This document shows positions 2,588 to 48,314 of a DNA stretch of 64,000 nt, one piece after another. Under the pieces are notes generated by a model, which was not told where the DNA came from, ran no database searches, and saw only the letters and a program-made list of their open reading frames with translations. The stretch comes from Minisyncoccota bacterium (GTDB taxonomy: Bacteria > Patescibacteriota > Minisyncoccia > Phycocordibacterales > UBA9973), in contig JBAZXO010000002.1 of assembly GCA_041659785.1 (NCBI GenBank), positions 55,479 to 119,478 of the forward strand, written 5' to 3'. Positions within the stretch are counted from its first letter, which is position 1. Every line of letters begins with the position of its first letter. Position numbers and translations under genes: made by a program.

Positions 2588-2816
2588 TTTGTCAATCTTA
2601 GGGTTTTCCACAGGAGGTACTGGTCAGATTGACTTTTGGCCATTTTTGAGCTATCTTGAAGGGGTAGTTCCGAAGAGAGGTATGGAGCAAATTGACCGAA
2701 AGATAGAGCCGACAGTAACCATCGTGAGAACCTTTTGTTTGCAGAACCTATTGGTCGTCCTGTGATTCTATCCTTACCTTAAAAGGCTAGAAAAGGAAAT
2801 CTCGCGACATTTAGTT
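2588..2816 (+). promoter_or_regulatory. Long GC-richer 5' leader, candidate cis-regulatory RNA/riboswitch upstream of a cell-wall hydrolase gene
   Basis: About 230 nt that are locally GC-rich and non-coding (only a 61-aa junk ORF). It sits between divergent genes. ydaO-type leaders commonly precede LysM/M23 hydrolases, but no class motif could be verified by eye. Confidence 0.2.
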
Positions 2817-2870
2817 TGTTTTATAAAACCTCAAAATAAAATTTTAAGATCTTCTCTCGCATTTTCCCTG

Positions 2871-4762: not shown

Positions 4763-4763
4763 G

Positions 4764-4834
4764 TGCGGGATGGGAGAATCGAACTCCCAACCTCAGTTTG
4801 GAAAACTGACGTTTTACCATTAAACTAATCCCGC
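4764..4834 (-). tRNA. tRNA-Gly (anticodon TCC), no encoded CCA
   Basis: Folded by hand: acceptor GCGGGAT/ATCCCGC, anticodon stem TCAGT/ACTGA with loop TTTCCAA, T-loop GGGAGTTCGATTCTCCC. Confidence 0.85.
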
Positions 4835-4838
4835 AATG

Positions 4839-4909
4839 TCGGGCCGCTGGGAATTGAACCCAGTCTAAATGCTCCCAAAGCACTTGTACTACCGGTATAC
4901 TACGGCCCG
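4839..4909 (-). tRNA. tRNA-Pro (anticodon TGG), C1-G72 start, 3-bp D-stem, no encoded CCA
   Basis: Acceptor CGGGCCG/CGGCCCG, anticodon loop TTTGGGA, T-arm CTGGGTTCAATTCCCAG. It lies 4 nt from tRNA-Gly. Confidence 0.75.
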
Positions 4910-4965
4910 CCTTCGCTAAAGCTTCGGCGGGCAAGCCCGCTTCAACTTAAAGCTAACACAGCATA

Positions 4966-5394
4966 TCATAAAATAATATCACTTACCACTTTTATTTTTG
5001 CTTTTTTGTTTTTTATATCAATAAAGACTACCAATAAATCCACTTGCCATTCTTTTTCATCTGGGACTTTTTCAGACAAAAGATAGGTTTGAATTGTCCG
5101 TGACAGACGTTTAAGCTTCCAGGGATGCATGTTGTCTTCAGGTCTATGTTGGTATCGCTCATCAGAATCATTATAAGATTTCGGTATAAAAGTATTTAAT
5201 GTTTCACGCGAAACACTTTTTACTTCTACAAAGTATATTTTATTAGCTTTTTCGGCGACTATATCTATTTCACCCCATTTCTTGGTGTAATTTCGATCTA
5301 ATACTGAAAAACCATGTTTCACAAGGAACTTTACAGCTATATTTTCTCCAATTTCTCCTATTTTTTGTGTGTTTGATGTAAAAACCTTAGGCAT
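4966..5394 (-). CDS. yraN: YraN-family (UPF0102) endonuclease
   Basis: GEIGENIAVKFLVKHGFSVLDRNYTKKWGEIDIVA is the typical YraN N-terminus. Confidence 0.75.
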   Translation of the reverse strand: MPKVFTSNTQKIGEIGENIAVKFLVKHGFSVLDRNYTKKWGEIDIVAEKANKIYFVEVKSVSRETLNTFIPKSYNDSDERYQHRPEDNMHPWKLKRLSRTIQTYLLSEKVPDEKEWQVDLLVVFIDIKNKKAKIKVVSDIIL

Positions 5395-5620
5395 ATAATA
5401 AGTTTCACATGGAACATAGTCTAATTGTGTTTCACGTGAAACGTTTAGCTAAATTTTTGTGTCTTTTATAAAAATATCCTTATTTTATAAGGTTTTATTG
5501 ACAAAAATAGACTTAAAAGACAACTTTTTTTACTGTCCTTTATAAACAGTACCCACATAGTTATCCACATATTTCAATAAAATCCTTGTGTTGCAAAGCT
5601 TTACTAAAGGACAGATTTTG

Positions 5621-5691
5621 TGCGGCTAGGGAGAATCGAACTCCCGTCTCATCCTTGGCAAGGACGTGTTCTACCACTAAACCATAACCGC
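5621..5691 (-). tRNA. tRNA-Gly (anticodon GCC)
   Basis: Acceptor GCGGTTA/TAGCCGC, anticodon stem CGTCC/GGATG with loop TTGCCAA, T-loop GGGAGTTCGATTCTCCC. The 71-aa ORF 5561..5776 overlying it is spurious. Confidence 0.85.
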
Positions 5692-5852
5692 AATAGTATT
5701 TTATAATTTTTTTCGTTTTTAAATTAAAAAATACTATATGATTATAGTATTTTATTGAAACTAATGCAATTGCCATATTAGCTTATAAAATAAGCATTAT
5801 TTGCCAATATTCCAATAATAGTGTAAAATATTGATATTATTAAATTAATTAT

Positions 5853-5924
5853 GCACCCGTAGTGAAATGGATATCACAACAGTCTTCGGAACTGTCGTTG
5901 GGGGTTCGAATCCCTCCGGGTGCA
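5853..5924 (+). tRNA. tRNA-Arg (anticodon TCG)
   Basis: Acceptor GCACCCG/CGGGTGC, D-stem GTGA/TCAC, anticodon stem ACAGT/ACTGT with loop CTTCGGA, T-loop GGGGGTTCGAATCCCTC. Confidence 0.85.
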
Positions 5925-5931
5925 CAAAGTC

Positions 5932-7659
5932 GTGGAACAAAACACTAAAAATTTAATAGCAAAAATACCCAAAGAGGTTTCACATGTAACAGATACATTA
6001 GAAAAGTACGGCTTTGAAGTGTACCTTGTTGGTGGATGTGTCCGTGATCTTTTAATGGGCAAAGAGCCAAAAGACTGGGACATTACAACTAACGCTAAAC
6101 CAGAACAAATTATTCCTCTTTTTAAAAAAACTGTTTATGAAAATACTTTTGGAACGGTAGGTGTGGTTCTCCCCTTTAATAAGGGGGAGTGGCCAAAGGT
6201 CGAGGGGGTGGTTTCACATGTAACAGACCCCTCCTCAATCCTCCCCTTAGCAGGGGAGGAAAATATGATTATTGAGGTTACGCCATACAGAATTGAGGCA
6301 AAATATAGTGATTTTAGGCATCCTGACGAGGTAAAATTCAGTGATAAGCTAGAAGATGACCTTAAAAGGCGTGATTTTACAGTTAACGCCCTGGCCTTAA
6401 GTCCCTCCAATTCGGCGGGCAAGCCTAAAGGACAACTGGTGGATTTGTTTGATGGTATAAAGGACATTAAAGACAAGACGTTAAAAGCAGTAGGGAACCC
6501 AGATGACCGTTTTGCAGAAGATGCGCTTCGAATGTTGCGTGCTGTCCGTTTCTCTTGCCAATTAAATTTTTCTGTGTCGTATGAAACTACAGAAAGTATT
6601 TTAAAAAATTCAGAGTTAATAAAAAAAATATCTGAAGAAAGAATTCGTGATGAGTTTGTAAAAATAATTATGTCAGAAAATCCTGCGAGCGGAATTGTGA
6701 TGTTACAAAAATTTAATTTGTTAAAAAATATTATTCCTGAATTAGAAGAGGGTATTGGTTGTGAACAATTAGGTGAACATATTTATGATGTGTGGGATCA
6801 TTTACTTCATGCACTCTCACATGCCGCAGACAAGAATTGGCCTTTAGAAATAAGGCTCGCAGCACTGTTCCATGATATCGGAAAGCCGAGGGCAAGAAGG
6901 TTAGCCGTACCTGATGCTTTTGCTCGGGATATCCTGGCAGGCCAACGTCACCACTCACAAAAGTATACAGGTTCGGCTAACCAAGAAGATTTCTCTGAGG
7001 CTTTTTCGAATGGTGACGTTGCGAAGCAGGACATTCCTGAGAAAAAGAACTCAGAGAAATCTTCAAAGAAAAAATATACTTTTTACGGTCATGAAGTTAT
7101 CGGCGCAAGGATGGCGAAAAAAATAATGGAGAGATTAAAATTTCCTAAAAAAGAAATTGATCTTGTGGAAAAACTCGTACGCAACCATATGTTTTTCTCA
7201 GACACTGAATTGATTACACTTTCTGCTGTTCGAAGAATTGTTGTGAAAGTTGGTAAAGAAAATATTTGGCCACTTATGAATGTCCGTGAGTGTGATAGAG
7301 TGGGGATGAATAAAAAAGAAGCACCCTATCGGCTTCGAAAATACTTCGCGATGATAGAAGAAGCTCTTCGTGACCCTATTTCTGTAGGACAACTAAAGAT
7401 TAATGGAGAATATATGATAAAAGAGCTTGGGATTACTCCTGGACCCAGAATGGGATGGATTTTAAATGCTTTATTGGAAGAAGTTTTAGACGCGCCAGAG
7501 AAGAATACCGTAAGTCATTTATCTGGATTGGTAAAATCATTAAATATGCTTGGTGATGCTGAGCTTAAAGTCCTCGGTTTGCGAGGAAAAGAAAAGAAAG
7601 AAGAGCTTGAAGAAGAAGAAGTCGCGAAACTTCACGAAAAGCATGGAGTGAGAAAGTAA
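5932..7659 (+). CDS. cca: CCA-adding enzyme / poly(A) polymerase family nucleotidyltransferase with HD domain; likely GTG start at 5932, just after tRNA-Arg
   Basis: YLVGGCVRDLLMGKEPKDWDITT head motif and an HD-domain region (LFHDIGKP). The track start at 5920 overlaps the tRNA 3' end. Confidence 0.8.
   Translation: MEQNTKNLIAKIPKEVSHVTDTLEKYGFEVYLVGGCVRDLLMGKEPKDWDITTNAKPEQIIPLFKKTVYENTFGTVGVVLPFNKGEWPKVEGVVSHVTDPSSILPLAGEENMIIEVTPYRIEAKYSDFRHPDEVKFSDKLEDDLKRRDFTVNALALSPSNSAGKPKGQLVDLFDGIKDIKDKTLKAVGNPDDRFAEDALRMLRAVRFSCQLNFSVSYETTESILKNSELIKKISEERIRDEFVKIIMSENPASGIVMLQKFNLLKNIIPELEEGIGCEQLGEHIYDVWDHLLHALSHAADKNWPLEIRLAALFHDIGKPRARRLAVPDAFARDILAGQRHHSQKYTGSANQEDFSEAFSNGDVAKQDIPEKKNSEKSSKKKYTFYGHEVIGARMAKKIMERLKFPKKEIDLVEKLVRNHMFFSDTELITLSAVRRIVVKVGKENIWPLMNVRECDRVGMNKKEAPYRLRKYFAMIEEALRDPISVGQLKINGEYMIKELGITPGPRMGWILNALLEEVLDAPEKNTVSHLSGLVKSLNMLGDAELKVLGLRGKEKKEELEEEEVAKLHEKHGVRK
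6168..6263. repeat. GC-rich composite palindromic insertion inside cca, read in-frame; contains an 18-nt direct repeat of 5976..5993
   Basis: ctcccctttaataagggggag hairpin, then tggccaaaggtcgagggggtgg, then ggtttcacatgtaacaga (identical to 5976..5993), then cctcccc-ttagca-ggggagg hairpin. Related to the family-B elements at 30945 and 58931. Confidence 0.45.
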
Positions 7660-7751
7660 AAAACAAATCTAGCAAAATTTTATCAGGTCCTCGGTTCTCT
7701 GGGTCCCTGTCCCAGCCAGACCATGCTAAAATTTTCTAGATTTGTTTTTTT
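7658..7751. repeat. MITE-like palindromic element, family A (core caggtcctcgg...ccagcc; TIRs aaaaacaaatctagcaaaatttt / aaaattttctagatttgttttttt). Probably also the cca/TMEM175 terminator
   Basis: The inverted termini and GC core were read directly. Homologous copies lie at 29772 (inside comM) and 57507, with a fragment at 40395. Confidence 0.5.
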
Positions 7752-38329: not shown

Positions 38330-40360
38330 CTAGATCAAGAAAACGACCAAAAGTAAGGCAACGATGTTTAAGATCTTTATCATTGGGTTTATGGCAGGAC
38401 CAGCTGTGTCTTTATAAGGGTCTCCGACGGTATCACCCGTAACTGCAGCTTTGTGGGCATCGCTACCCTTGCCACCGTGGTTGCCTTGTTCAATGTGTTT
38501 CTTAGCATTGTCCCAAGCGCCTCCACCGGAGGTCATTGAAATAGCCACGAAGAGTCCAGTGACGATAGATCCAACGAGGAGTCCTCCTAGAACTATTAAA
38601 CCATTATTTTTTCCAAAAACTAGAACTACAACTATCGGCGCAAGCACAGGGATGAGTGCTGGCAAAATCATTTGTTTGATAGCTGCACCAGTGATGATGG
38701 AAACTGCTTTAGCGTAATCAGGTTTTGCCGTACCTTCCATGATTCCTTTTATTTCTCTGAATTGTCTGCGGATTTCTTCTACAACTTTTCCTGCAGTTTT
38801 TCCTACAGCTTCCATGCAAAGTGCACCGAAATAATATGGTAGAAGTCCTCCCAAGAATAGACCGATGATTACGTAAGGATTAGTTAAATCGAAAGTGATA
38901 GCTTTTCCAGCTTTTATAATTTCTTCTGTGTAAGAAGCGAATAGTACAAGTGCAGCGAGGCCTGCAGAGCCGATAGCATAACCCTTCGTGACAGCCTTTG
39001 TGGTATTTCCAACAGCATCGAGGGGGTCAGTGACATTTCGAACTGATTCTGGAAGTTCTGCCATCTCTGCGATTCCTCCGGCATTGTCAGTAATAGGACC
39101 ATAAGCATCTATCGCAACAATGATTCCTGTCATTGAGAGCATAGACATTGCAGCGACGGCTATACCGTAAAGTCCAGCTGCATTGTAACTAACAAATATT
39201 CCTAGGACGATTGTGATCAAGGGTAAAGCAGTAGCTTTCATAGAGATAGCTAAACCTTGAATAACATTTGTGCCGTGACCAGAGACGGATGCTTCTGCAA
39301 TTGATTTTACTGGATAGTATTTTGTAGAAGTGAAATATTCTGTAATGACGACGAGAGCTCCAGTAACAAAGAGTCCAACAAGAGAAGAAATAAATAAAGA
39401 CATTACTGAATATTTACCATTACCTTCCATTAATAATTTTGTAACAGGATAAAAGAGGACTGCGGCAATAACGCCAGAAGCAATGAGACCCTTGTATAGG
39501 GCACCCATGATGTTTTGTTTTTTACCCAAACGTACGAACCATGTACCGATGATAGATGCAAAAATTGCTATTCCACCTATTACGAGAGGGAAGATAATAG
39601 CGTTTTCAAAACCTACAAAAAGAAGTGAACCTAGAAGCATCGTAGCGACTGAGGTAACAGCATAAGTTTCAAATAAATCAGCGGCCATACCAGCACAGTC
39701 TCCAACATTGTCTCCGACATTGTCTGCGATAACTCCAGGATTTCTTGGATCATCTTCTGGAATGCCTGCTTCTAGTTTGCCTACGAGGTCAGCACCCACG
39801 TCTGCAGCTTTAGTAAAAATTCCTCCACCGAGTCTTGCGAAAATAGAAATGAGAGATGCACCGAAGCCAAGTCCAACGAGAGCAGTGACATCTTTTGTAA
39901 TTGCATAAAAAGCAGTAACACCGAGAAGGGCAAGACCGACTACAAGGAGTCCAGTAACTGTGCCACCTTTAAAAGCGAGAGAAAGAGCTTCGTTGATTCC
40001 ACTTCGGGCAGCTTCTGTCGTTCGGACATTTGCTCTAACGGATACATTCATACCGATATATCCTGCAAGTCCAGAAAAAACAGCCCCAACAAGGAAACCC
40101 ATTGCCATTGTAAAACCGAGCTTCGGAGTGAGTGCAATGACAAGGAAAAGTATCACAGCGATAAAGCCGATAGTTTTGTATTGTTTATTTAAATAAGCAG
40201 AGGCTCCCTCTTGGATTGCTTTAGCTATCTCCTGCATGCGTTCATTGCCGGGGCTCTTTTTTAATATTATTTTAGCGAGAAATAAACCGTAAACGATAGC
40301 GATAAACGAACTGATGATTGCGAACAATAAAAATTGATTCATATCTTTTTTGCCAAACAA
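38330..40360 (-). CDS. hppA: Membrane-bound proton/sodium-translocating pyrophosphatase
   Basis: [18 protein letters not shown] and [19 protein letters not shown] signature motifs. 676 aa, multi-TM. Confidence 0.95.
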
Positions 40361-40394
40361 ATTATTTTACTTCTGAATGGTCTGGGGATTTTTT

Positions 40395-40408
40395 CCGAGG
40401 ACCTGAAG
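40395..40408. repeat. Fragment of the family-A element (ccgaggacctgaag, reverse orientation) between hppA and nusA
   Basis: It is the reverse complement of the cttcaggtcctcgg/cttcgggtcctcgg cores at 7686 and 29795. Confidence 0.3.
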
Positions 40409-40466
40409 AAAAAAAGATAATTTATTTGGCCTACGTTAAATTACTAATATTAATAATAAATTTACT

Positions 40467-41651
40467 TTATTTTTCCTCAATTATTTCAACTTTTTCACCG
40501 TCTGTACTTGCTACTTCTTTATCATCACCTTTGATATCTATTCTCCAGCCTGTAAGTTTCGCGGCGAGACGGACATTTTGTCCACCTTTACCAATAGCAA
40601 GAGAAAGCTGATCATTTGCTACTTCTACTGTTGCTTTGTGTTCTTTCTCATCTATATCGATAGAAATAACTTTCGCTGGGGAAAGAGCATTAGAAACAAA
40701 TTGTGTAGGATTTTCAGACCAAGGAATTATATCAATTTTTTCTCCAGAAAGTTCTGTGGTAATAGTATTTACTCGAGTACCTTTTTGTCCGACGCATGAG
40801 CCGACAGCGTCTATATGCTCATCGTTTGAATAAACTGCGATTTTAGAACGCGCACCTGCTTCACGAGCAACTGATTTTATTTCCACTACTCCATTTTCTA
40901 TTTCTGGTGCTTCCATTGCGAAAAGTTTCTCTATAAATTTAGGATGGGTACGAGAAAGGCGCAAATTTATACCTCTTGGTGTATCTTCTACGCTGTAGAG
41001 ATAAGCTCGGACTCTGCGGCCACGTTCCCAATATTCTCCGGGAATTTGTTCTTCGGCAGGGAGGATACCAGTAGCTCTGTTGAAATCAACGTAGACATTT
41101 CCACGTTCTACTTTTTGTACGATACCAGAAATTATTTCTCCTTCCTTTGTACCATATTCGTCTATGATGGATGTGCGTTCTGCTTCACGAATTTTCTGAA
41201 CAATGACTTGCTTGGCTGTTTGAGCAGCGATACGTCCGTAATCATCTTTCGCTTCCAATGGGAAAATAATCTCATCATTGAGTTCTACTCCCTTTTTTAT
41301 TTTTTTTGCATCTTCGAGGAGAATATGGTGTTCGCTATTGAAGTGTACGCGTTCGTCACCTTCTGTTTTTAAAGAATATTCAACCTCATCCCCCGCCTTC
41401 CCCTGAGAGGGTTGGGGTGAGGTGTCCAAGATTGCAATACTTTCGTCGACTACAATTTTTACTTGGAAGAAATCTGTTTTACCAGTTTCCATGTCGAATT
41501 TAGCTCGAACGATTTGTCCTTTCTTGCCGTAATCTTTTTTATAAGCGGCGGCCATCGCTTGTTCTATCGCTTCTAGAATTTTTTCCTTTGGAATTTTTCT
41601 CTCTTCCTCTAACTGCTCGAGTGCTGATTTGAATGTTTTTATATCTAACAT
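40467..41651 (-). CDS. nusA: Transcription termination/antitermination factor NusA
   Basis: N-terminal domain, S1, and two KH domains (GxxG loops). Confidence 0.9.
   Translation of the reverse strand: MLDIKTFKSALEQLEEERKIPKEKILEAIEQAMAAAYKKDYGKKGQIVRAKFDMETGKTDFFQVKIVVDESIAILDTSPQPSQGKAGDEVEYSLKTEGDERVHFNSEHHILLEDAKKIKKGVELNDEIIFPLEAKDDYGRIAAQTAKQVIVQKIREAERTSIIDEYGTKEGEIISGIVQKVERGNVYVDFNRATGILPAEEQIPGEYWERGRRVRAYLYSVEDTPRGINLRLSRTHPKFIEKLFAMEAPEIENGVVEIKSVAREAGARSKIAVYSNDEHIDAVGSCVGQKGTRVNTITTELSGEKIDIIPWSENPTQFVSNALSPAKVISIDIDEKEHKATVEVANDQLSLAIGKGGQNVRLAAKLTGWRIDIKGDDKEVASTDGEKVEIIEEK
41383..41428. repeat. GC-rich near-palindromic insertion inside nusA (cctcatcccccgccttcccctgagagggttggggtgagg), read in-frame as LDTSPQPSQGKAGDE
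   Basis: Outer arms cctcatcccc / ggggtgagg. It is a GC island in an AT-rich gene. Confidence 0.35.
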
Positions 41652-41982
41652 AATTGATTTTCTTGAGCGAAGCGATTTAACATGGTTTTTAAAATATATT
41701 CGCCTTGCTCATTATTTTAATAAAAAAGCCCTGTTTCTGACAGGACTTATATGGGAAGAATATACCATAAAACATATTTAAATGCAAATTACACAACAAA
41801 CAGAGTTAAATTTTGTACATTTGTATTTTCATGTTTAATTATTGACATACTAACGTTAGTATTGCGAAATTTAAAAATGTGTGTTATAGCTATAAAAAAG
41901 ATTGTTCATTGTTAATTAAATAAACTCAATGGGAATCCTCCCATAACTTCAGGCTTAAATGCCAATCGAAAGGAGTAATACA

Positions 41983-43140
41983 ATGGAAAAGATTAGATAT
42001 TTCGGGGAATGGGCTTGTGTAAATGGCTATGCCTTTAATACACAAACTAAACAGTTAATTGATTTAAAAGATCATCTTATCTCTAGAGAGTTTCTCAGCT
42101 CAAAGATTTTTAAGGATATAGTTAATTCTGATTTAAGTAAAGTATACGAGAAAAGAAAAGCTAATCAAATATTAGCCCTAGAGATAACTGAAAGATGTAA
42201 CTACGAATGCCGTTATTGTTTTGAAGGTAATAGTAGTCAAATCAAAAACAATTCTCTTAGTTTTCAAAAAGCATGTAATGCTATTGATAAATTACCAAAT
42301 GGCAGTAAGTTAAGATTTTTTGGTGGTGAACCATTACTGGAATTTGATTTGATAAAAGATATGGTTGCGAAATATCCACAACACATATATTCAATAGTTA
42401 CTAATGGTAGTCTAGTAACATCTGAAATTGCCAGCTTTCTTGCTGAGCACAAATTTTCTGTTGGTCTTTCTTATGATGGTTATGGATGGCAAAAAAGAAA
42501 TAGAATATGCCGAAATCATGATTCACAGCATGATTTTGAAAATGCTATCAAGCTTTTATCAGAAGCCGGTGTTTATGTAGGGATTTCAACAGTAGTAACA
42601 AAAGAAAGCATACCTAGTTTATATGATATTCATCTTGAAGTATTTGATGATTATCCGATTAGTGGTTGGGCTTATTTGATTGGCTATACAAGCGATATGA
42701 CTTTTTTAGATTTAGATATATTTAGAAATAATTTAATGGGAATCATTGAAGATTTTCCAGCAAGACATTTACTTAAAATAAATGATCTCAGAAGATGGTC
42801 TATGAAAGTTACAGGAGAGTGGCCCATTGATGGATTTTGTGGGGCTGGTGCTTGTTATAAAGCAATAACAAGTCAAGGAGAAGAAAGATTCTGCCCATTT
42901 TTCCTTAGAGAGCCATCTTGTTATGGGCCAAGTATTGGGTTAGTTGAAGTTAATTGCAAAAAATGCCAAATTTGGAATTTTTGCAAAGGCGGATGTTTAG
43001 CATTGAATTTATATGGTTCTGGGTCAACAAACAAAAGTCATCCATTTTCATGTAAGAAAAACCATATTTATTTCGAAGCTGGATTAAGAACTAGAATAAA
43101 AATAAGAGAAGAAATTGAAAATCCAGCCAAAATGCGATAA
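41983..43140 (+). CDS. Radical SAM/SPASM maturase (ranthipeptide/sactipeptide-maturase type)
   Basis: ITERCNYECRYC is a CX3CX2C cluster. GGEPLL. C-terminal SPASM cysteines CGAGACYKAI...CPFF...CYGP...CKKCQIWNFCKGGC. An AAGGAG RBS sits before the ATG at 41983; the track uses 41959. Confidence 0.85.
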   Translation: MEKIRYFGEWACVNGYAFNTQTKQLIDLKDHLISREFLSSKIFKDIVNSDLSKVYEKRKANQILALEITERCNYECRYCFEGNSSQIKNNSLSFQKACNAIDKLPNGSKLRFFGGEPLLEFDLIKDMVAKYPQHIYSIVTNGSLVTSEIASFLAEHKFSVGLSYDGYGWQKRNRICRNHDSQHDFENAIKLLSEAGVYVGISTVVTKESIPSLYDIHLEVFDDYPISGWAYLIGYTSDMTFLDLDIFRNNLMGIIEDFPARHLLKINDLRRWSMKVTGEWPIDGFCGAGACYKAITSQGEERFCPFFLREPSCYGPSIGLVEVNCKKCQIWNFCKGGCLALNLYGSGSTNKSHPFSCKKNHIYFEAGLRTRIKIREEIENPAKMR

Positions 43141-43254
43141 ACAATAAACTAACCAAAATAATTACAAGTCCAAAGGAGGTGGTGTTTATGATTGTATGAT
43201 GGGCATAGTTTCAGTTTGTTAACTTCAAATGATCAAAACCCAAGGGAGGTATGC

Positions 43255-43416
43255 ATGACTCGCGCAAAGCAGTACTCTGAACTGGAGAGAGGAGAGAAAA
43301 GAAGAAGAATTCTTTCCAGGTACGGCGCAAAGACACAAAGTCAAGGTTGTGACACGCCGTGCGATACACCATGTGACACGCCATGTGACACGCCGTGCGA
43401 TACACCGTGTGGGTAA
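43255..43416 (+). CDS. RiPP precursor peptide, 53 aa: MTRAKQYSELERGEKRRRILSRYGAKTQSQG-(CDTP)5-CG, with six Cys in the last 22 residues
   Basis: GGAGG RBS 5 nt before the ATG. The 12-nt tandem repeats vary only at synonymous positions (tgt/tgc, gac/gat, acg/aca, ccg/cca). A terminator hairpin follows immediately. The longer 74-aa track ORF from 43192 has no RBS. Confidence 0.6.
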   Translation: MTRAKQYSELERGEKRRRILSRYGAKTQSQGCDTPCDTPCDTPCDTPCDTPCG

Positions 43417-43434
43417 CACCCTAATGTGAACATG

Positions 43435-43468
43435 GAGGTGGTAATTAATTTACCACCTCTTTTTTATA
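43435..43468. terminator. Hairpin gaggtggtaa-ttaat-ttaccacctc plus T6 after the precursor gene; shared with the convergent gene
   Basis: Read directly. Confidence 0.55.
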
Positions 43469-44071
43469 TATTTTTATAACCTCCGCTACCCATTCATCAA
43501 AATTAATATTTTCTTTTATCCATAAGTTGAAAATTTTTTCACGAATATTTTTATGATTTGGATATCCTTCGTCAAGTCTGTCAATAATATTAGCAAATTC
43601 CTTATTTATGATTACAGTTATTATTTCCTTCAGCTCATTTCTTTCTTTTTCCGAAATTAAATCAGAGGTTTTTGAAATGTTGTTAAATTTTAAGAATTTT
43701 TTGCTATTTATATAATTATAAAAATAAATGTGGCTAATTTCATGAATGATTACTGCAGGATATTTATTAAATGAATGATATTGGCTTATTGATATATATG
43801 ATTTCTTGCTGTTATGAAGAGAGACTGGTGTGTTGTTAATATAATAATCGAAATCATTTATTTTATAAGATAAGCTTGTTAGTTTATTAAATCTCGCGAA
43901 TATTTTTTTTCCGTACTTATTAAAATATCTATTTAAATAAATAATTAAAAAAGGAGATGTTAAGGATTTTGAATTATTTTTATTTTTTGGTATTTTATTA
44001 CCCCAAACTTTGTCTAGATTTTTAATCATCTTTTTAGACCAAATATCAATTTTTTTATCATACTTAAACAT
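43445..44071 (-). CDS. Hypothetical protein with an HExxH motif (HEISH); candidate zinc metallopeptidase / leader peptidase
   Basis: AVIIHEISHIYFYNY. Very AT-rich, with no other recognisable domain. Confidence 0.4.
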   Translation of the reverse strand: MFKYDKKIDIWSKKMIKNLDKVWGNKIPKNKNNSKSLTSPFLIIYLNRYFNKYGKKIFARFNKLTSLSYKINDFDYYINNTPVSLHNSKKSYISISQYHSFNKYPAVIIHEISHIYFYNYINSKKFLKFNNISKTSDLISEKERNELKEIITVIINKEFANIIDRLDEGYPNHKNIREKIFNLWIKENINFDEWVAEVIKIYKKEVVN

Positions 44072-44206
44072 AGTTTTAGTTTAAAACAAGTATTGTTTCA
44101 TTATAACAATAATAATCAACAAAATATAGCTCTATTTAGACATCGGACGTCCAGGTGACAGTTGTATATAGAAATATGAGGAGTATAATAAGGGGGAATA
44201 GGTGGT

Positions 44207-44240
44207 TGCAATTTTGGCGAGAACATGGTATAATAGCCAT
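44207..44240 (+). promoter_or_regulatory. Strong promoter TTGCAA-17-TGGTATAAT (extended -10) with a ~130-nt leader upstream of the lipoprotein gene
   Basis: Read directly. Confidence 0.45.
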
Positions 44241-44376
44241 GAGTAAAGTATAAATCCTGAACTTTGTCATTTTAATAGGAGAAGTAAAAAATATTAAATT
44301 AGTTCTTGAAATTAGAAATATGGCAATTTCGCCAATTTCTTTCCGCACGATTGCGGACATCCCATAGGAGGGGATC

Positions 44377-45609
44377 ATGTTTAAGTTCATGCAAGTTCTT
44401 CGTAATACCTTGGTGTTGTCCGGAGTCCTGACTCTCGGGTTTAACATCAGCTGTTCTGGAGGAGGTGGGGACCCAAAACCAAACCCACCACCTGTCGTGA
44501 CTTACGTCACGACGATTGATCCGAAGGAGGGGACGCATTCTAGTCCTCTCTCTACAACTACAGAAGCGGGGAAACCCACTTCGTTCGGTATTACTCTTGA
44601 TGCGGGGTATTCGAACCCCGTACTTACCCCCATGGTGGGAACAATTGCGCCTGGTGTGACTACGGGAACGTATGTTTACACCATTCCATCCGTCAATGCG
44701 ACTTCAACAATCGTCTTGACGGCGACAAAAGATCCGACGCTTTACAAGGTTTCGGGAAAGGTGACCGGTGTCAACATCAGTGGCCTAACTATGACCTTGC
44801 AGTCAACAGGCAAGTCTGTGTTGACAGATGCCAACGGGAACTACACCTTTTACGGTGTGCCTACTGGCAACGACGTTATAACACCCAGTGGGCCTGTGAA
44901 ATTCTCTCCCACATATCGCAATGTCGGCATTAACAATGCCGATTCCGTCGGTAATGACTTCACGACGACGTTGGTGGAAGGTTCTCCGGAAATGGCGATT
45001 TCCATCATTTACAGAGATTATGGAGATGGACGAGTGACTACTGTGATAGCACAGTCTATGACTCCATTGGTTCTAGGGGATGTTCTTACTTTCTGGGGGA
45101 AAAAACCTGGTGAAAGTATTTCTACCCAGTGGCATGATCCTGTTATAATAGACTCCAATCTTGCTGGGAGATACATGACGTTTTACTTTTACGACGGCAA
45201 GGACTTTTTCGACGTCCTCCCTGACGGCACCAAGAAGTTCTGGCTGCCCGGGTCTGCTGTCTTCGAAGTAAGGGACAAAAAATTGTCAGGATTGACGACG
45301 TTTGTGCTAGCAGAAGTACCTGTACCAGGGGATCCTAATCGAACATTCGGCCCTCTTGTAAGGGTTGATGTTTCCCCAGATGGAAAGAGCGCTCAGCTCT
45401 TCGGTGAAGGGTTAGCTGGAACGGTGGTCGAACTTTACCAAATGGTAGGTACGGCTTTTCGGTCAGTTACTTTGGTACCCCAGAACGGAATCATCACCAT
45501 TCCGTCCGATTTCTACGGTCTCAAATCTCCAGTAACGGTTGTGTTCAGAAAGCAGGATGGGAGTTATCTGTGCTCCACTGCTTATCCTGACATACCCAAG
45601 CAACAATAA
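44377..45609 (+). CDS. Secreted/lipoprotein-like protein with a CarboxypepD_reg-like beta-sandwich segment; GC-rich relative to the rest of the window
   Basis: Signal peptide ending ...LTLGFNISC. YKVSGKVTGVNISGLTMTLQSTGKSVLTDANGNYTFYGVP motif. Confidence 0.55.
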   Translation: MFKFMQVLRNTLVLSGVLTLGFNISCSGGGGDPKPNPPPVVTYVTTIDPKEGTHSSPLSTTTEAGKPTSFGITLDAGYSNPVLTPMVGTIAPGVTTGTYVYTIPSVNATSTIVLTATKDPTLYKVSGKVTGVNISGLTMTLQSTGKSVLTDANGNYTFYGVPTGNDVITPSGPVKFSPTYRNVGINNADSVGNDFTTTLVEGSPEMAISIIYRDYGDGRVTTVIAQSMTPLVLGDVLTFWGKKPGESISTQWHDPVIIDSNLAGRYMTFYFYDGKDFFDVLPDGTKKFWLPGSAVFEVRDKKLSGLTTFVLAEVPVPGDPNRTFGPLVRVDVSPDGKSAQLFGEGLAGTVVELYQMVGTAFRSVTLVPQNGIITIPSDFYGLKSPVTVVFRKQDGSYLCSTAYPDIPKQQ

Positions 45610-45617
45610 TCTCAAAG

Positions 45618-45660
45618 TGCTGATACGTCAGCCCGCCGACAGAAATGCCGGCGGTTTTTT
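45618..45660 (+). terminator. Hairpin gcccgccg...cggcggttttttat
   Basis: Read directly. Confidence 0.4.
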
Positions 45661-45794
45661 ATTTTAATTGTACTATTCACTTGTTTTTTATTTTGTAGTA
45701 TAATCAAGTAGTTATAAAGTTGAAAATTATAAGGCTATTTTTGATTATTATTTAATTTAAGTAAAAGTAATAAATATCTTTTACTTCTAATGGG

Positions 45795-48314
45795 ATGAAA
45801 TACAAATCTTTTAAAATTATTATTTTGGCAGTTTTTGTTTTATTAATGGCTGGTACTTTTGTTCAAAAAGCAAAAGCAATTGGTGGTGGATCAGGCGTCG
45901 CGTCAGTATGGGCACCTAGCTTTACCGTAAATTACAATCTATCAGGTGACCAAAATACTATGACATACTCTACAGTTGGAACTCGTTCTGGAAGTATTCG
46001 GGTAAATTGTGGAGCTTTTACTCCATTTTGGTACGATAATACAAGCGGTTATAACTGGGGTGGATACATTGGTGGTTATTATGTTGATACTCCGTATCTA
46101 ATGGATAATGGAACTGCTTCTGTTGTTAGCACAAGCGTTTCAGGAAGTATTTCTTCGGGTGAAATAATTCAACAAACTCCTGGAAGAGCTGGTGATGCAC
46201 TTTGTAATGACTCAAGAAGATATTCTTATTATGATAGTGATCCACCTATTGATAATGGAACTCAAGGCACATTTATTACAGTATCAAAGTCTTTGAATGT
46301 TTCTAGTCTTCCAAGTGGCACCTATACTCTTTCTGTTACTCTATGTGCGGAAAATACAAGTACAAGTGGTTCTCCAAATTGTGGCGTTCGAACCCAGTCT
46401 TTTACAATCTCAAGAGCTGCCACCCCTTACACCGTTTCCGCAGCCATTGATCCTGCTAGTGCGAGCCATGGTACTGTTGACCCAACTACAACCCCTCGAA
46501 CAGGCTTAGCCTCTGATGGTACTGCCACTACTACCTTCAAACTTATACCAGATACAGCTAATAATTATGTTGTAGACACATTGATTACTAATGTTACCGG
46601 CGGTAACTGTCTTAAAGATAAATTTCTTGCTGATAACGTTACTTACCAAACCGGTCCAATCACTGCTAATAATTGTGTTTACACTTTTGGATTTAAGTTA
46701 GCTCCAGCTGGTGTTCCCGTCGTTACTCTAACAGCAAATCCAACTTCTGGTACAGTAAATGTTGTTAATCCAGGGCTTACTTGGAGCGCAACAAATTCTC
46801 CTACATCATGTACGGCTAGTGGTGATTGGTCAGGATCAAAAGCAACAAGTGGAACAAACGTATCTCAAGGAGTGTTGACACAGGTAAAGACATATACATA
46901 CAACCTAAGTTGTTCTAATGCTAGTGGCACGAGCGCTTTAGCGACTGCCACAGTCGATGTCATCGCTGCCGCTCCCCCCATGTCCGGCACGCTCACTGCC
47001 TCCGACTGTCAAATCACAGCAGGGAATAACAGCTGTCTTTCTTCTTTAAGTTGGACAACTACAAACCCCGAAGGTGTCTCTAATGTTACTTCCAACACTC
47101 CTGTTGCGAATACCGTCGTCGGTGGTCCTGCAAATAATGGAACTAGTTCAGCGAGTGTTTCTTACGGTACTAGAACATTCTTTTTAAACAATAATGCAAA
47201 GTCACTTGTTCCTGCTTCTGAATCTCCAGCTGGCTCTGGAGTTATAGCTACTGCTACTTGTGCTTCTGGAACTACATGGAACGGAAGTATTTGTATTTCT
47301 GCAGGTGGAATGACCGGTACTCTAACCCCAGCCTCTTCTACTTGTACGATTAGTTCTGGAGCAAGTACTTGTACCAGGATTCTAGCTTGGACTACTACAA
47401 ATCCTGTCGCTGTTTCTGCTGTCACCAATGCTGACGGAGCCACACCTAACCCAAGCGCAAGCAACAACAACACTTCTCAAGTTTTCACAATTCATTACAA
47501 TCTCGGATCTCCTTCAACCTTCTATCTCTACAACAATATGCAAAATCTCGCGACTGCTACCGTCACTCCAGTCTGTACTGCTGGTACCACTTGGAATGGA
47601 ACAACATGCGCTCCTTCTACAGCCATGACGGGCACTCTGACTTCTCTAACGAATACTTGTACAATAGCTTCTGGAGCAAGTACTTGTCTTAATAAAGTTC
47701 TATCTTGGACGACTACAAATCCTGTTGCTACTTCTTCTGTTTCTAATTCAAATGGAGCTACTCCCAACCCAGGCCCAAGTGCAAACAATGGTTCTCAAGG
47801 GTTCACTATTCAATACAATAACAGCGTTGCTACGACATTCTGGCTTTACAACAATGGAGTTCCTCTTGCTTCGAAAGCTATCACTCCAGTCTGTGCTTCT
47901 GGAAGTGGCTGGGATGGAACGAAATGTTTAGCAGGTTTGTGTAGTAATGGCGCTAACAATCCTCCAACCTGTAATACCTGTACTCCTCCAGCGACATATT
48001 CTTTATTAGATAATAAATGTGTTAATTTGGGTCTTTGTTTAAACGGTGCAACTAATCCTCCTGCTTGTACGACCAATAGTGGAGGTACATGTCTAAACGG
48101 TGCAACTAATCCTCCTGCTTGTGACAACTTTGGTGCTGGCACGGCTGGAGTCTGCGCGCCAACACACTACAATTGTTCTGTAGGAACGGTAAATGCAGCA
48201 AGTAAGAAAAGTAATACTTCTAACTTTACTTGGACTTGTGATGGAGTAAGTGGTGGAGCTTCAAGTCCACAGTGCTTAGAGTTAAAAAAGAAACCTATAT
48301 TTATTGAGAATTAG
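45795..48314 (+). CDS. Giant secreted Ser/Thr/Asn-rich repeat protein (adhesin or pilus-associated); three ~105-aa tandem modules and three CLNGATNPPAC-type Cys repeats
   Basis: Signal peptide. Repeats GTLT..S.C.I..G.S.C...L.WTTTNP.. occur three times (about 46990..47930). C-terminal Cys-rich repeats. Confidence 0.65.
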   Translation: MKYKSFKIIILAVFVLLMAGTFVQKAKAIGGGSGVASVWAPSFTVNYNLSGDQNTMTYSTVGTRSGSIRVNCGAFTPFWYDNTSGYNWGGYIGGYYVDTPYLMDNGTASVVSTSVSGSISSGEIIQQTPGRAGDALCNDSRRYSYYDSDPPIDNGTQGTFITVSKSLNVSSLPSGTYTLSVTLCAENTSTSGSPNCGVRTQSFTISRAATPYTVSAAIDPASASHGTVDPTTTPRTGLASDGTATTTFKLIPDTANNYVVDTLITNVTGGNCLKDKFLADNVTYQTGPITANNCVYTFGFKLAPAGVPVVTLTANPTSGTVNVVNPGLTWSATNSPTSCTASGDWSGSKATSGTNVSQGVLTQVKTYTYNLSCSNASGTSALATATVDVIAAAPPMSGTLTASDCQITAGNNSCLSSLSWTTTNPEGVSNVTSNTPVANTVVGGPANNGTSSASVSYGTRTFFLNNNAKSLVPASESPAGSGVIATATCASGTTWNGSICISAGGMTGTLTPASSTCTISSGASTCTRILAWTTTNPVAVSAVTNADGATPNPSASNNNTSQVFTIHYNLGSPSTFYLYNNMQNLATATVTPVCTAGTTWNGTTCAPSTAMTGTLTSLTNTCTIASGASTCLNKVLSWTTTNPVATSSVSNSNGATPNPGPSANNGSQGFTIQYNNSVATTFWLYNNGVPLASKAITPVCASGSGWDGTKCLAGLCSNGANNPPTCNTCTPPATYSLLDNKCVNLGLCLNGATNPPACTTNSGGTCLNGATNPPACDNFGAGTAGVCAPTHYNCSVGTVNAASKKSNTSNFTWTCDGVSGGASSPQCLELKKKPIFIEN

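Follow-up and report, generated by a model that had tools for sequence, protein, structure and literature searches.

A candidate three-gene radical-SAM/SPASM peptide cassette with tandem x-T-P-C precursors and an HExxH protein in CPR/Patescibacteria

PapB and CteB are established SPASM enzymes whose precursors are rich in Cys or built of repeats, PapB in the pathway of freyrasin with its six CX3D thioethers and CteB/ScfB on the SCIFF peptides, where Cys is linked to Thr. Small thioether rings made by radical S-adenosylmethionine (rSAM) enzymes are also found in the NxxC β-thioether peptides of streptococci (NxxcB). Peptides of this last type have been named in the literature (PMC11851443), and a further SPASM enzyme, TigE, is a cyclopropyl synthase working on TIGSVS repeats (PMC10878394). 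Here, we describe a locus of a Minisyncoccota bacterium that encodes an rSAM/SPASM enzyme, a 53-amino-acid (aa) Cys-rich peptide and a small protein with an HExxH motif, all within a 64,000-nt stretch of contig JBAZXO010000002.1 (hereafter the window, whose numbering is used throughout). This cassette is a new repeat-precursor SPASM system in bacteria of the candidate phyla radiation (CPR/Patescibacteria). We consider that it probably forms a self-contained three-gene system for a peptide synthesized on ribosomes and then post-translationally modified (RiPP), with a thioether-type product and a leader removed by the HExxH protein.

The arrangement recalls the PapB and SCIFF systems in several respects. 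In each, an rSAM/SPASM gene adjoins a short precursor with a Cys-rich C terminus, the Cys motif is repeated, and a transporter is missing from a minimal set of genes. The best NCBIfam match of the window rSAM is also PapB, and CteB is among its best solved relatives. The differences are equally clear. The enzyme scores well under the cut-offs of both families (89.7 vs 340 bits for PapB, NF047865; 59.9 vs 425 bits for the SCIFF maturase, TIGR03974), and the precursor is built of contiguous x-T-P-C units rather than with CX3D spacing, with Asp at the variable position x in just 26/64 units. The leader is unrelated, no SCIFF or other precursor model matches the peptide, an extra zincin gene is conserved beside it, and the cassette is seen in CPR bacteria only.

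Gene calls were based on the list of open reading frames (ORFs) and the raw sequence. The three genes lie within 2.1 kb: the rSAM/SPASM gene (41983..43140, + strand, 385 aa), the precursor gene (43255..43416, + strand, 53 aa, stop codon at 43414..43416) and, convergent with them, the gene for the 208-aa HExxH protein (43445..44071, − strand), whose HEISH motif is located at 43730..43744. The longest rSAM ORF begins at 41959; ATG 41983 is the likely start because all 20 orthologs start at the MEK(I/V)(R/K)YFG position. The rSAM and precursor genes share one strand, are separated by 114 nt and end at a common intrinsic terminator (43434..43465, + strand), composed of a 10–11 bp stem (43434..43460), a 5-nt loop and T6. 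This terminator overlaps the 3′ end of the HExxH ORF, the stop codon of which falls inside the loop. A Shine–Dalgarno (SD) sequence, GGGAGG (43244..43249, + strand), is positioned 5 nt upstream of the precursor ATG at 43255. A preliminary description of this DNA had reported an rSAM gene with a CNYECRYC motif, a 53-aa ORF with a ribosome-binding site about 115 nt downstream, a hairpin with a T6 terminator and a convergent 208-aa HEISH protein, and all of these are present.

The precursor peptide reads MTRAKQYSELERGEKRRRILSRYGAKTQSQG-CDTPCDTPCDTPCDTPCDTPCG, where MTRAKQYSELERGEKRRRILSRYGAKTQSQG is the leader (43255..43347, + strand) and CDTPCDTPCDTPCDTPCDTPCG is the core, C-(DTPC)5-G (43348..43413, + strand). 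The core can be read, as it had been originally, as five CDTP repeats followed by CG, and contains six Cys in 22 residues. It is encoded by a 12-nt (four-codon) repeat array (43348..43409, + strand; Tandem Repeats Finder: period 12, 3.9–4.9 copies, 78–80% matches) whose units differ, as first noted, at synonymous third codon positions only. Across loci, the core takes the form (x-T-P-C)4–6, with contiguous units and no spacers. Because the Cys ahead of the first unit is missing in three loci, the repeat unit is x-T-P-C and not C-D-T-P. Of the 64 units compared, all keep Thr, Pro and Cys, with all synonymous codons in use (ACG/ACA/ACT/ACC, CCG/CCA/CCT/CCC and TGT/TGC), and position x is occupied by Ser (32), Asp (26), Ala (4), Glu (1) or Val (1). 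The leader is 27–33 aa long and retains the motif ERxEKRxxILSxY, with R12, I19 and Y23 invariant.

This constancy of Thr, Pro and Cys under synonymous codon turnover, together with the retained leader, indicates purifying selection on the peptide, as had been proposed from the window alone. Judged by these comparisons, the small ORF is a real gene and not a chance DNA repeat. The peptide has no Pfam match and no NCBIfam family at E ≤ 0.1, the SCIFF precursor model included, and a direct protein search returned two further peptides of the family (P0121 and P0122). Viral contigs were considered as an additional source of (xTPC)n precursors and rejected: the 18 matches are all plain DNA tandem repeats, with neither a leader nor an rSAM gene. 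Two longer ORFs, P0123 (91 aa) and P0124 (77 aa), contain degenerate (D-T/I-P-C/P)n strings and lack the YSELER leader, which could reflect decay of a former copy, a wrongly called frame or an unrelated DNA repeat.

We compared 13 loci (the window, L001, L002/L003, L004, L005, L084, L164–L167 and L169–L171). Scans of genomes and metagenomes with generic rSAM patterns returned three loci of the family and otherwise mostly unrelated SPASM enzymes; the other loci came from exact-protein look-ups. The peptide ORF occupies the same place in 12/13 loci that have an orthologous rSAM (52–85% identity) and sequence beyond it, starting 0–75 nt past the rSAM stop in the relatives vs 114 nt in the window, and is uncalled or rarely called. 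A comparable SD sequence precedes its start in 12/12 peptide loci, and in the same 12/12 the HExxH gene is convergent and ends 19–64 nt past the peptide stop. The preliminary description had staked its case on retention of the peptide ORF in homologous loci and on conservation of the repeat at the protein level, both of which are observed. In the window, a second SD-like sequence, AAAGGAGGTGG, is found within 43172..43215, followed by ATG 43188 and a three-codon ORF (ATG ATT GTA TGA). This ORF is located at the position of the peptide start in the relatives, the true start with its own SD being ~65 nt downstream; the translation-initiation region thus seems to have been duplicated or to have received an insertion.

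In an all-vs-all BLAST of ORFs of at least 70 aa within ±4 kb, the only families common to at least three loci were the rSAM, present at 13, and the HExxH protein, present at 12. A transporter, a NUDIX protein and small upstream ORFs were considered as extra cassette genes and rejected, the flanking-ORF BLAST having returned no third conserved protein family. The flanks are unrelated between loci; among their genes are those for NusA, an aminoglycoside-kinase-like protein, a tRNA synthetase, a methyltransferase and CARDB proteins. As the flanks are unrelated and nothing else is shared, the cassette comprises three genes, without a transporter or further tailoring enzyme. By gene content, a short leader/core precursor linked to a modifying enzyme across genomes, it is a predicted RiPP locus. 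All named carriers of the cassette belong to CPR/Patescibacteria: the identical match of the window protein in NCBI is named Candidatus Paceibacterota, in agreement with the CPR-like host suspected earlier, and two other loci are assigned to Doudnabacteria and to a ‘Patescibacteria group’ metagenome-assembled genome (MAG).

The enzyme is, by its sequence, a member of the radical SAM superfamily, matching Pfam Radical_SAM (PF04055) at 54 bits, where the gathering score is 29.5, and also Fer4_12 (PF13353). Its CX3CX2C motif is CNYECRYC (42196..42219; C80/C84/C87 in 393-aa numbering) and its GGE motif is FFGGEP, both invariant in 21/21 family members. The SPASM subfamily is marked by CX9–15GX4C … CX2CX5CX3C … C in a C-terminal domain, where two auxiliary 4Fe-4S clusters are bound. 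The C-terminal region carries the SPASM Cys pattern proposed earlier, C294-x4-C299-x12-C312 … C333-x2-C336-x5-C342-x3-C346 … C365 (42838..43053), in which the CX2CX5CX3C segment is located at 42955..42996. Seven of these Cys (C294, C312, C333, C336, C342, C346 and C365) are invariant in the 21 members, while Cys299 of auxiliary cluster I is absent from 2/21. The SPASM model TIGR04085 is the best match of the C-terminal 109 residues, at 21.9 bits vs a cut-off of 27, and Pfam SPASM (PF13186) does not match the protein. An AlphaFold2 (AF2) model (predicted local distance difference test (pLDDT) 77.9, predicted template modelling score (pTM) 0.82, with low pLDDT in the SPASM region) aligns over its full length with anSME first in a Foldseek search (E 1e-15, template modelling score (TM) 0.63, 21% identity), then with CteB, ChlB and TigE. 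Residues 13–57 form a confident small β-rich domain with two short helices, which may bind the leader; the N-terminal 66 residues match neither a RiPP recognition element (RRE) nor any other family by sequence.

All 79 NCBIfam matches of the rSAM are sub-threshold, and the best ones are peptide maturases: after PapB come CcpM (TIGR04068; 79 bits vs 500, with the N-terminal half alone aligning), HxsB (77.7 vs 370) and the nif11 maturase (75 vs 518.7), with anSME (TIGR03942) at 61 vs 349. When solved structures are searched with the family profile, TigE (8vpo) scores 88 bits, CteB 69 and anSME 67.5, over the rSAM core only. On these scores the enzyme belongs to none of the PapB, SCIFF, CcpM and anSME families, and because every family score is far below its cut-off, no reaction can be transferred by homology. 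The family itself is tight, with 21 proteins at 52–100% identity and a fall from 461 to 81 bits at the next score, and appears from sequence to be a distinct clade of short (~385 aa) SPASM peptide-modifying enzymes. The preliminary description had seen here a new precursor class for the PapB/SCIFF enzyme family. The novelty stands, in a conserved cassette that has no curated family, and the assignment to PapB, SCIFF or CcpM does not survive the scores. The family comparisons, which covered the TIGR03974 and PapB models that it had proposed, also gave no confident grouping with anSME or a cofactor maturase; such a grouping would, by its account, have refuted its reading.

Tandem repeats behind a short leader, served by one rSAM/SPASM enzyme, are likewise a feature of the TigE/TvgB (TIGSVS and TVGG repeats) and HxsA/HxsB systems, and TigE is the best solved sequence match of the window family and HxsB its third-best NCBIfam match. 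The repeats in the present cassette are Cys-based vs Ile/Val or His/Ser in those systems. TigE contains an 85-residue RRE (PMC10878394), whereas, compared by sequence only, the N-terminal ~60 residues of the window rSAM match no family.

The HExxH protein has no signal peptide and no match in Pfam, NCBIfam or the sequences of the Protein Data Bank (PDB), even at E ≤ 10, the NCBIfam search having covered 14 members. The orthologs share invariant H110, E111, H114, N145, E146, E149, D167, G169, Y170, H173 and R177. In a confident AF2 model (pLDDT 90.5, pTM 0.88), a long helix is followed by a three-stranded sheet, the HExxH helix (101–121), a helix with N145/E146/E149 and a helix with H173/R177. 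The model thus displays the hallmarks of a zincin of the gluzincin type, namely an HExxH helix, a Glu on the next helix and an α/β fold, and HExxH, E149 and Y170/H173 together point to a gluzincin active site. Abylysin, selecase, aminopeptidase N and thermolysin show the same order of backing helix, three-stranded sheet, HExxH helix and Glu helix; the protein differs from minimal gluzincins and M1-type domains in having no sequence-level relationship to them and in the DxGYxxHxxLR motif specific to its own family. A profile search of 1.84 billion representative sequences returned 324 proteins at E ≤ 1e-3 and 7 at ≤ 1e-30. This wider family is mostly ~225 aa long, has no Pfam domain and shares the pattern HExxH … KEA(L)T … DxGYxxHxxLR; E149 and DxGYxxHxxLR are retained even in remote relatives, and E146 is not. 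From these searches, the 208-aa protein appears to belong to a new, unannotated HExxH family for which neither Pfam nor NCBIfam has a model.

Two remote relatives, P0189 and P0205, carry a C-terminal transglutaminase-like domain (PF01841, Transglut_core). The transglutaminase-like superfamily includes cysteine proteases, and the fusions would thus hint that the wider HExxH family processes peptides. The 1-kb contig of another remote relative, P0148, offered no informative gene context. Pairing of an rSAM/SPASM maturase with a zincin-like HExxH protein is also known from ChlB/ChlH, PflC and PesO in triceptide and other RiPP clusters, where the HExxH partners are Fe/α-ketoglutarate hydroxylases, and both ChlH and the ChlB rSAM domain are among the structural or sequence matches of the window proteins. 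The window HExxH protein differs from ChlH in size (208 vs ~340 aa), in being encoded by a separate convergent gene and in its anaerobic host. We infer that it is a leader peptidase, a reading that we rank above an oxygenase.

In the mechanism that we propose, the rSAM enzyme would bind the leader, possibly via its β-rich N-terminal domain, and, at the CX3CX2C cluster, cleave SAM, yielding a 5′-deoxyadenosyl radical, which would take one hydrogen from a carbon of one residue per unit. The invariant Thr would be the favoured target and residue x the alternative, and the attacked carbon would be joined to the sulfur of the unit’s Cys with the assistance of the auxiliary Fe-S clusters. The predicted product is a ladder of 4–6 small rings closed by thioethers (i to i+2 or i+3), each changing the mass by −2 Da. 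With Thr as the acceptor, each ring would be Thr-Pro-Cys (i, i+2), or C-x-T if counted from the preceding Cys; otherwise, a residue-agnostic Cα (sactionine-type) link or an NxxC-like link to x could be formed. The HExxH protein, as a minimal gluzincin-like metallopeptidase (Glu149 on the next helix, Tyr170/His173), would then cut off the leader. On sequence grounds, the product is most likely an undescribed ranthipeptide/sactipeptide-like thioether RiPP.

The preliminary description had regarded Cys-Asp-Thr repeats as exactly the chemistry on which PapB and SCIFF enzymes act. That claim does not hold, as Asp sits at the variable position of the conserved x-T-P-C unit; because Ser, Ala, Val or Glu replace it, the reaction conserved across units cannot be Cys-Asp linkage of the PapB type. 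Compared by motif only, the NxxC peptides would resemble the present ones in having the acceptor three positions ahead of the Cys (x-T-P-C vs N-x-x-C) in a small rSAM-made ring. The precursors of the cassette differ from them in a variable acceptor position (S/D/A/E/V), an invariant Thr-Pro and units arranged in tandem. It is possible, though we hold it somewhat doubtful, that the product is a contiguous ladder of 4–6 very small thioether rings, one per tetrapeptide, and that the HExxH protein is the founding member of a new zincin family acting as a minimal leader peptidase or as an immunity/processing enzyme retained as an orphan by related CPR genomes. The cassette would then be a rare system dedicated to a natural product or to signalling in CPR bacteria, which are episymbiotic and genome-reduced. 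A topology of one ring per tetrapeptide is undescribed for ranthipeptides or sactipeptides.

Several observations weigh against a thioether RiPP with a dedicated leader peptidase. The homology to thioether synthases is weak, as seen in the PapB and SCIFF-maturase scores given above, and the best solved relatives include the cyclopropyl synthase TigE and anSME. We know of no precedent for a Thr-Pro-Cys i/i+2 thioether ring. The HExxH model has no significant Foldseek match in the PDB (best E 0.37), the top structures being minigluzincins and anthrax lethal factor. In L171, a 2.9-kb contig, the rSAM ortholog is the most divergent of all (52–53% identity) and is followed directly by a hairpin and T-run (2652..2869), with no (xTPC)n peptide ORF visible on that contig; it may be an orphan maturase, or its peptide may be encoded elsewhere. 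Conversely, in a related CPR genome (L172, ~80% nucleotide identity to the window over clpP, rny, tig and nusA) the HExxH gene stands by itself, flanked by clpP and rny. This copy is intact (7098..7730, equal to L168 4001..4633 and corresponding to window 43429..44068) and 76% identical in amino acids, and the 14.6-kb contig contains neither the peptide nor an orthologous rSAM, only an unrelated 297-aa rSAM (29% identity). Homology ends at window position 43429, 13 nt beyond the peptide stop. The L172 copy may serve, as an orphan, in immunity or processing, or may be what a rearrangement of the cassette left behind, and it indicates that the cassette is accessory and rearranging, with an HExxH gene able to persist alone.

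These points bear on three other explanations. That the rSAM performs a chemistry other than Cys thioether formation, such as anSME-like conversion of Cys to formylglycine, C-C cross-linking, epimerisation or a within-residue change as by TigE/TvgB, with the free or oxidised Cys serving as metal ligands, is unlikely in our view. It would agree with anSME as the top structural match, with TigE, a cyclopropyl synthase with a repeat precursor (PMC10878394), as the top solved sequence match, with family scores too low for any reaction to be transferred, and with the loss of Cys299 in two members. The peptide itself speaks for thioethers instead: Cys is the sole chemically distinctive invariant residue and occurs once per unit, the cores offer no Ile for cyclopropanation (Val stands at x in 1/64 units) and no aromatic residue for cyclophanes, and the best curated-family match is PapB, a thioether synthase. 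The anSME motif, C/S-x-P/A-x-R, is absent from the core sequences compared. A more radical explanation, in which the small ORF is a metallothionein-like metal binder or a bare DNA tandem repeat beside an unrelated rSAM and no RiPP exists, draws on the 12-nt repeats that yield (xTPC)n in the 18 viral contigs and on the degenerate versions in P0123 and P0124. We consider this explanation close to refuted and give it hardly any weight, since position, strand, SD and leader are strictly kept beside an orthologous rSAM in 12 loci with unrelated flanks, codons turn over synonymously around constant T, P and C, and the region has no Rfam match.

The HExxH protein could instead be an Fe/α-ketoglutarate (α-KG) tailoring oxygenase that hydroxylates Pro, Thr or the Asp/Ser position, with the leader cut, if at all, by an unlinked protease; we judge this quite improbable. 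The Pro constant in every core unit would suit such an enzyme, and invariant His173 and Arg177 could provide the third metal ligand and bind the 2-oxoacid. CPR bacteria are mostly anaerobic fermenters without a tricarboxylic acid cycle, which disfavours an enzyme dependent on O2 and α-KG, and the partner rSAM would itself be O2-labile. No NCBIfam model matched any of the 14 HExxH members at E ≤ 10; that collection presumably includes TIGR04267 (mod_HExxH, IPR026337), whose presence in the release searched was not confirmed. The IPR026337 family defines the α-KG-HExxH enzymes (PMC12636437). Such enzymes, zincin-like in fold, initially carried metallopeptidase annotations and are often encoded next to rSAM/SPASM maturases or fused to them; the RiPP residues that they hydroxylate are Asp, His, Phe, Gln and Pro, and one of the enzymes also hydrolyses peptides (PMC12636437, PMC13060819). 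The window protein, however, shows no match in sequence to the ChlH or SjiH chain of the solved structures, is ~130 residues shorter than the ~340-aa ChlH domain and carries a conserved, gluzincin-like Glu on the helix after HExxH. The leader peptidase thus remains our preferred reading of this gene.

The genomes of CPR/Patescibacteria are tiny, and biosynthetic gene clusters are usually reported to be missing from them. In one MAG survey, the Patescibacteria MAGs held none (PMC11613949), and the literature searched on Patescibacteria/CPR with ranthipeptides, radical SAM or precursor peptides gave generic antiSMASH surveys only. The (x-T-P-C)n motif was not found described in the literature searched, nor in a curated family. 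A conserved, apparently mobile RiPP cassette restricted to CPR would stand among the few systems for specialised metabolites or signalling in this large and uncultured group. RiPP research would gain a compact new rSAM/SPASM clade of ~385 aa, a precursor with a Cys at every fourth residue and an invariant Thr-Pro that predicts unusually small rings, and a small HExxH family. Whether the members of that family are hydrolases or oxygenases matters for the way in which HExxH proteins of RiPP pathways are now being reassessed. Because the three genes fit in 2.1 kb, the hypothesis is directly testable by heterologous expression.

Repeat-precursor SPASM systems do occur in CPR, because other CPR loci carry the His-Xaa-Ser system. 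Seven remote SPASM loci (L035, L047, L066, L073, L110, L114 and L136) encode ~95-aa proteins ending in (SHG)n-QW near the rSAM match and look like the known His-Xaa-Ser (HxsA/HxsB) system; several come from the CPR phyla Azambacteria, Parcubacteria and Moraniibacteria. Elsewhere among the remote loci, TIGSVS repeats (TigB-like) are found in L009, a SCIFF-like peptide in L148 and an (NC)n peptide in L089.

The cassette had also been thought to open a continuous GC-richer island (43180..45650), which base composition contradicts. The GC content is 0.363 for the whole window, 0.32 for the rSAM gene, 0.51 for the peptide gene and 0.49 for an unrelated 410-aa ORF; the HExxH gene, at 0.225, is the AT-richest stretch. 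The high value of the peptide gene is due to its Cys/Asp/Thr/Pro codons, and the apparent rise beyond the cassette to the 410-aa ORF (44377..45609) and an 839-aa ORF (45795..48314, GC 0.42). These two ORFs are likely surface proteins, the former with sub-threshold SdrD_B/CarboxypepD_reg-like matches, and are not conserved beside the cassette in other genomes. A structured RNA was considered as the source of the GC-rich patch and rejected, with no Rfam match at E ≤ 1 in 40000..47000. Over the whole window at gathering thresholds, Rfam matched only tRNAs, four of which are clustered at 4763..5925 (Gly-TCC, Pro-TGG, Gly-GCC and Arg-TCG).

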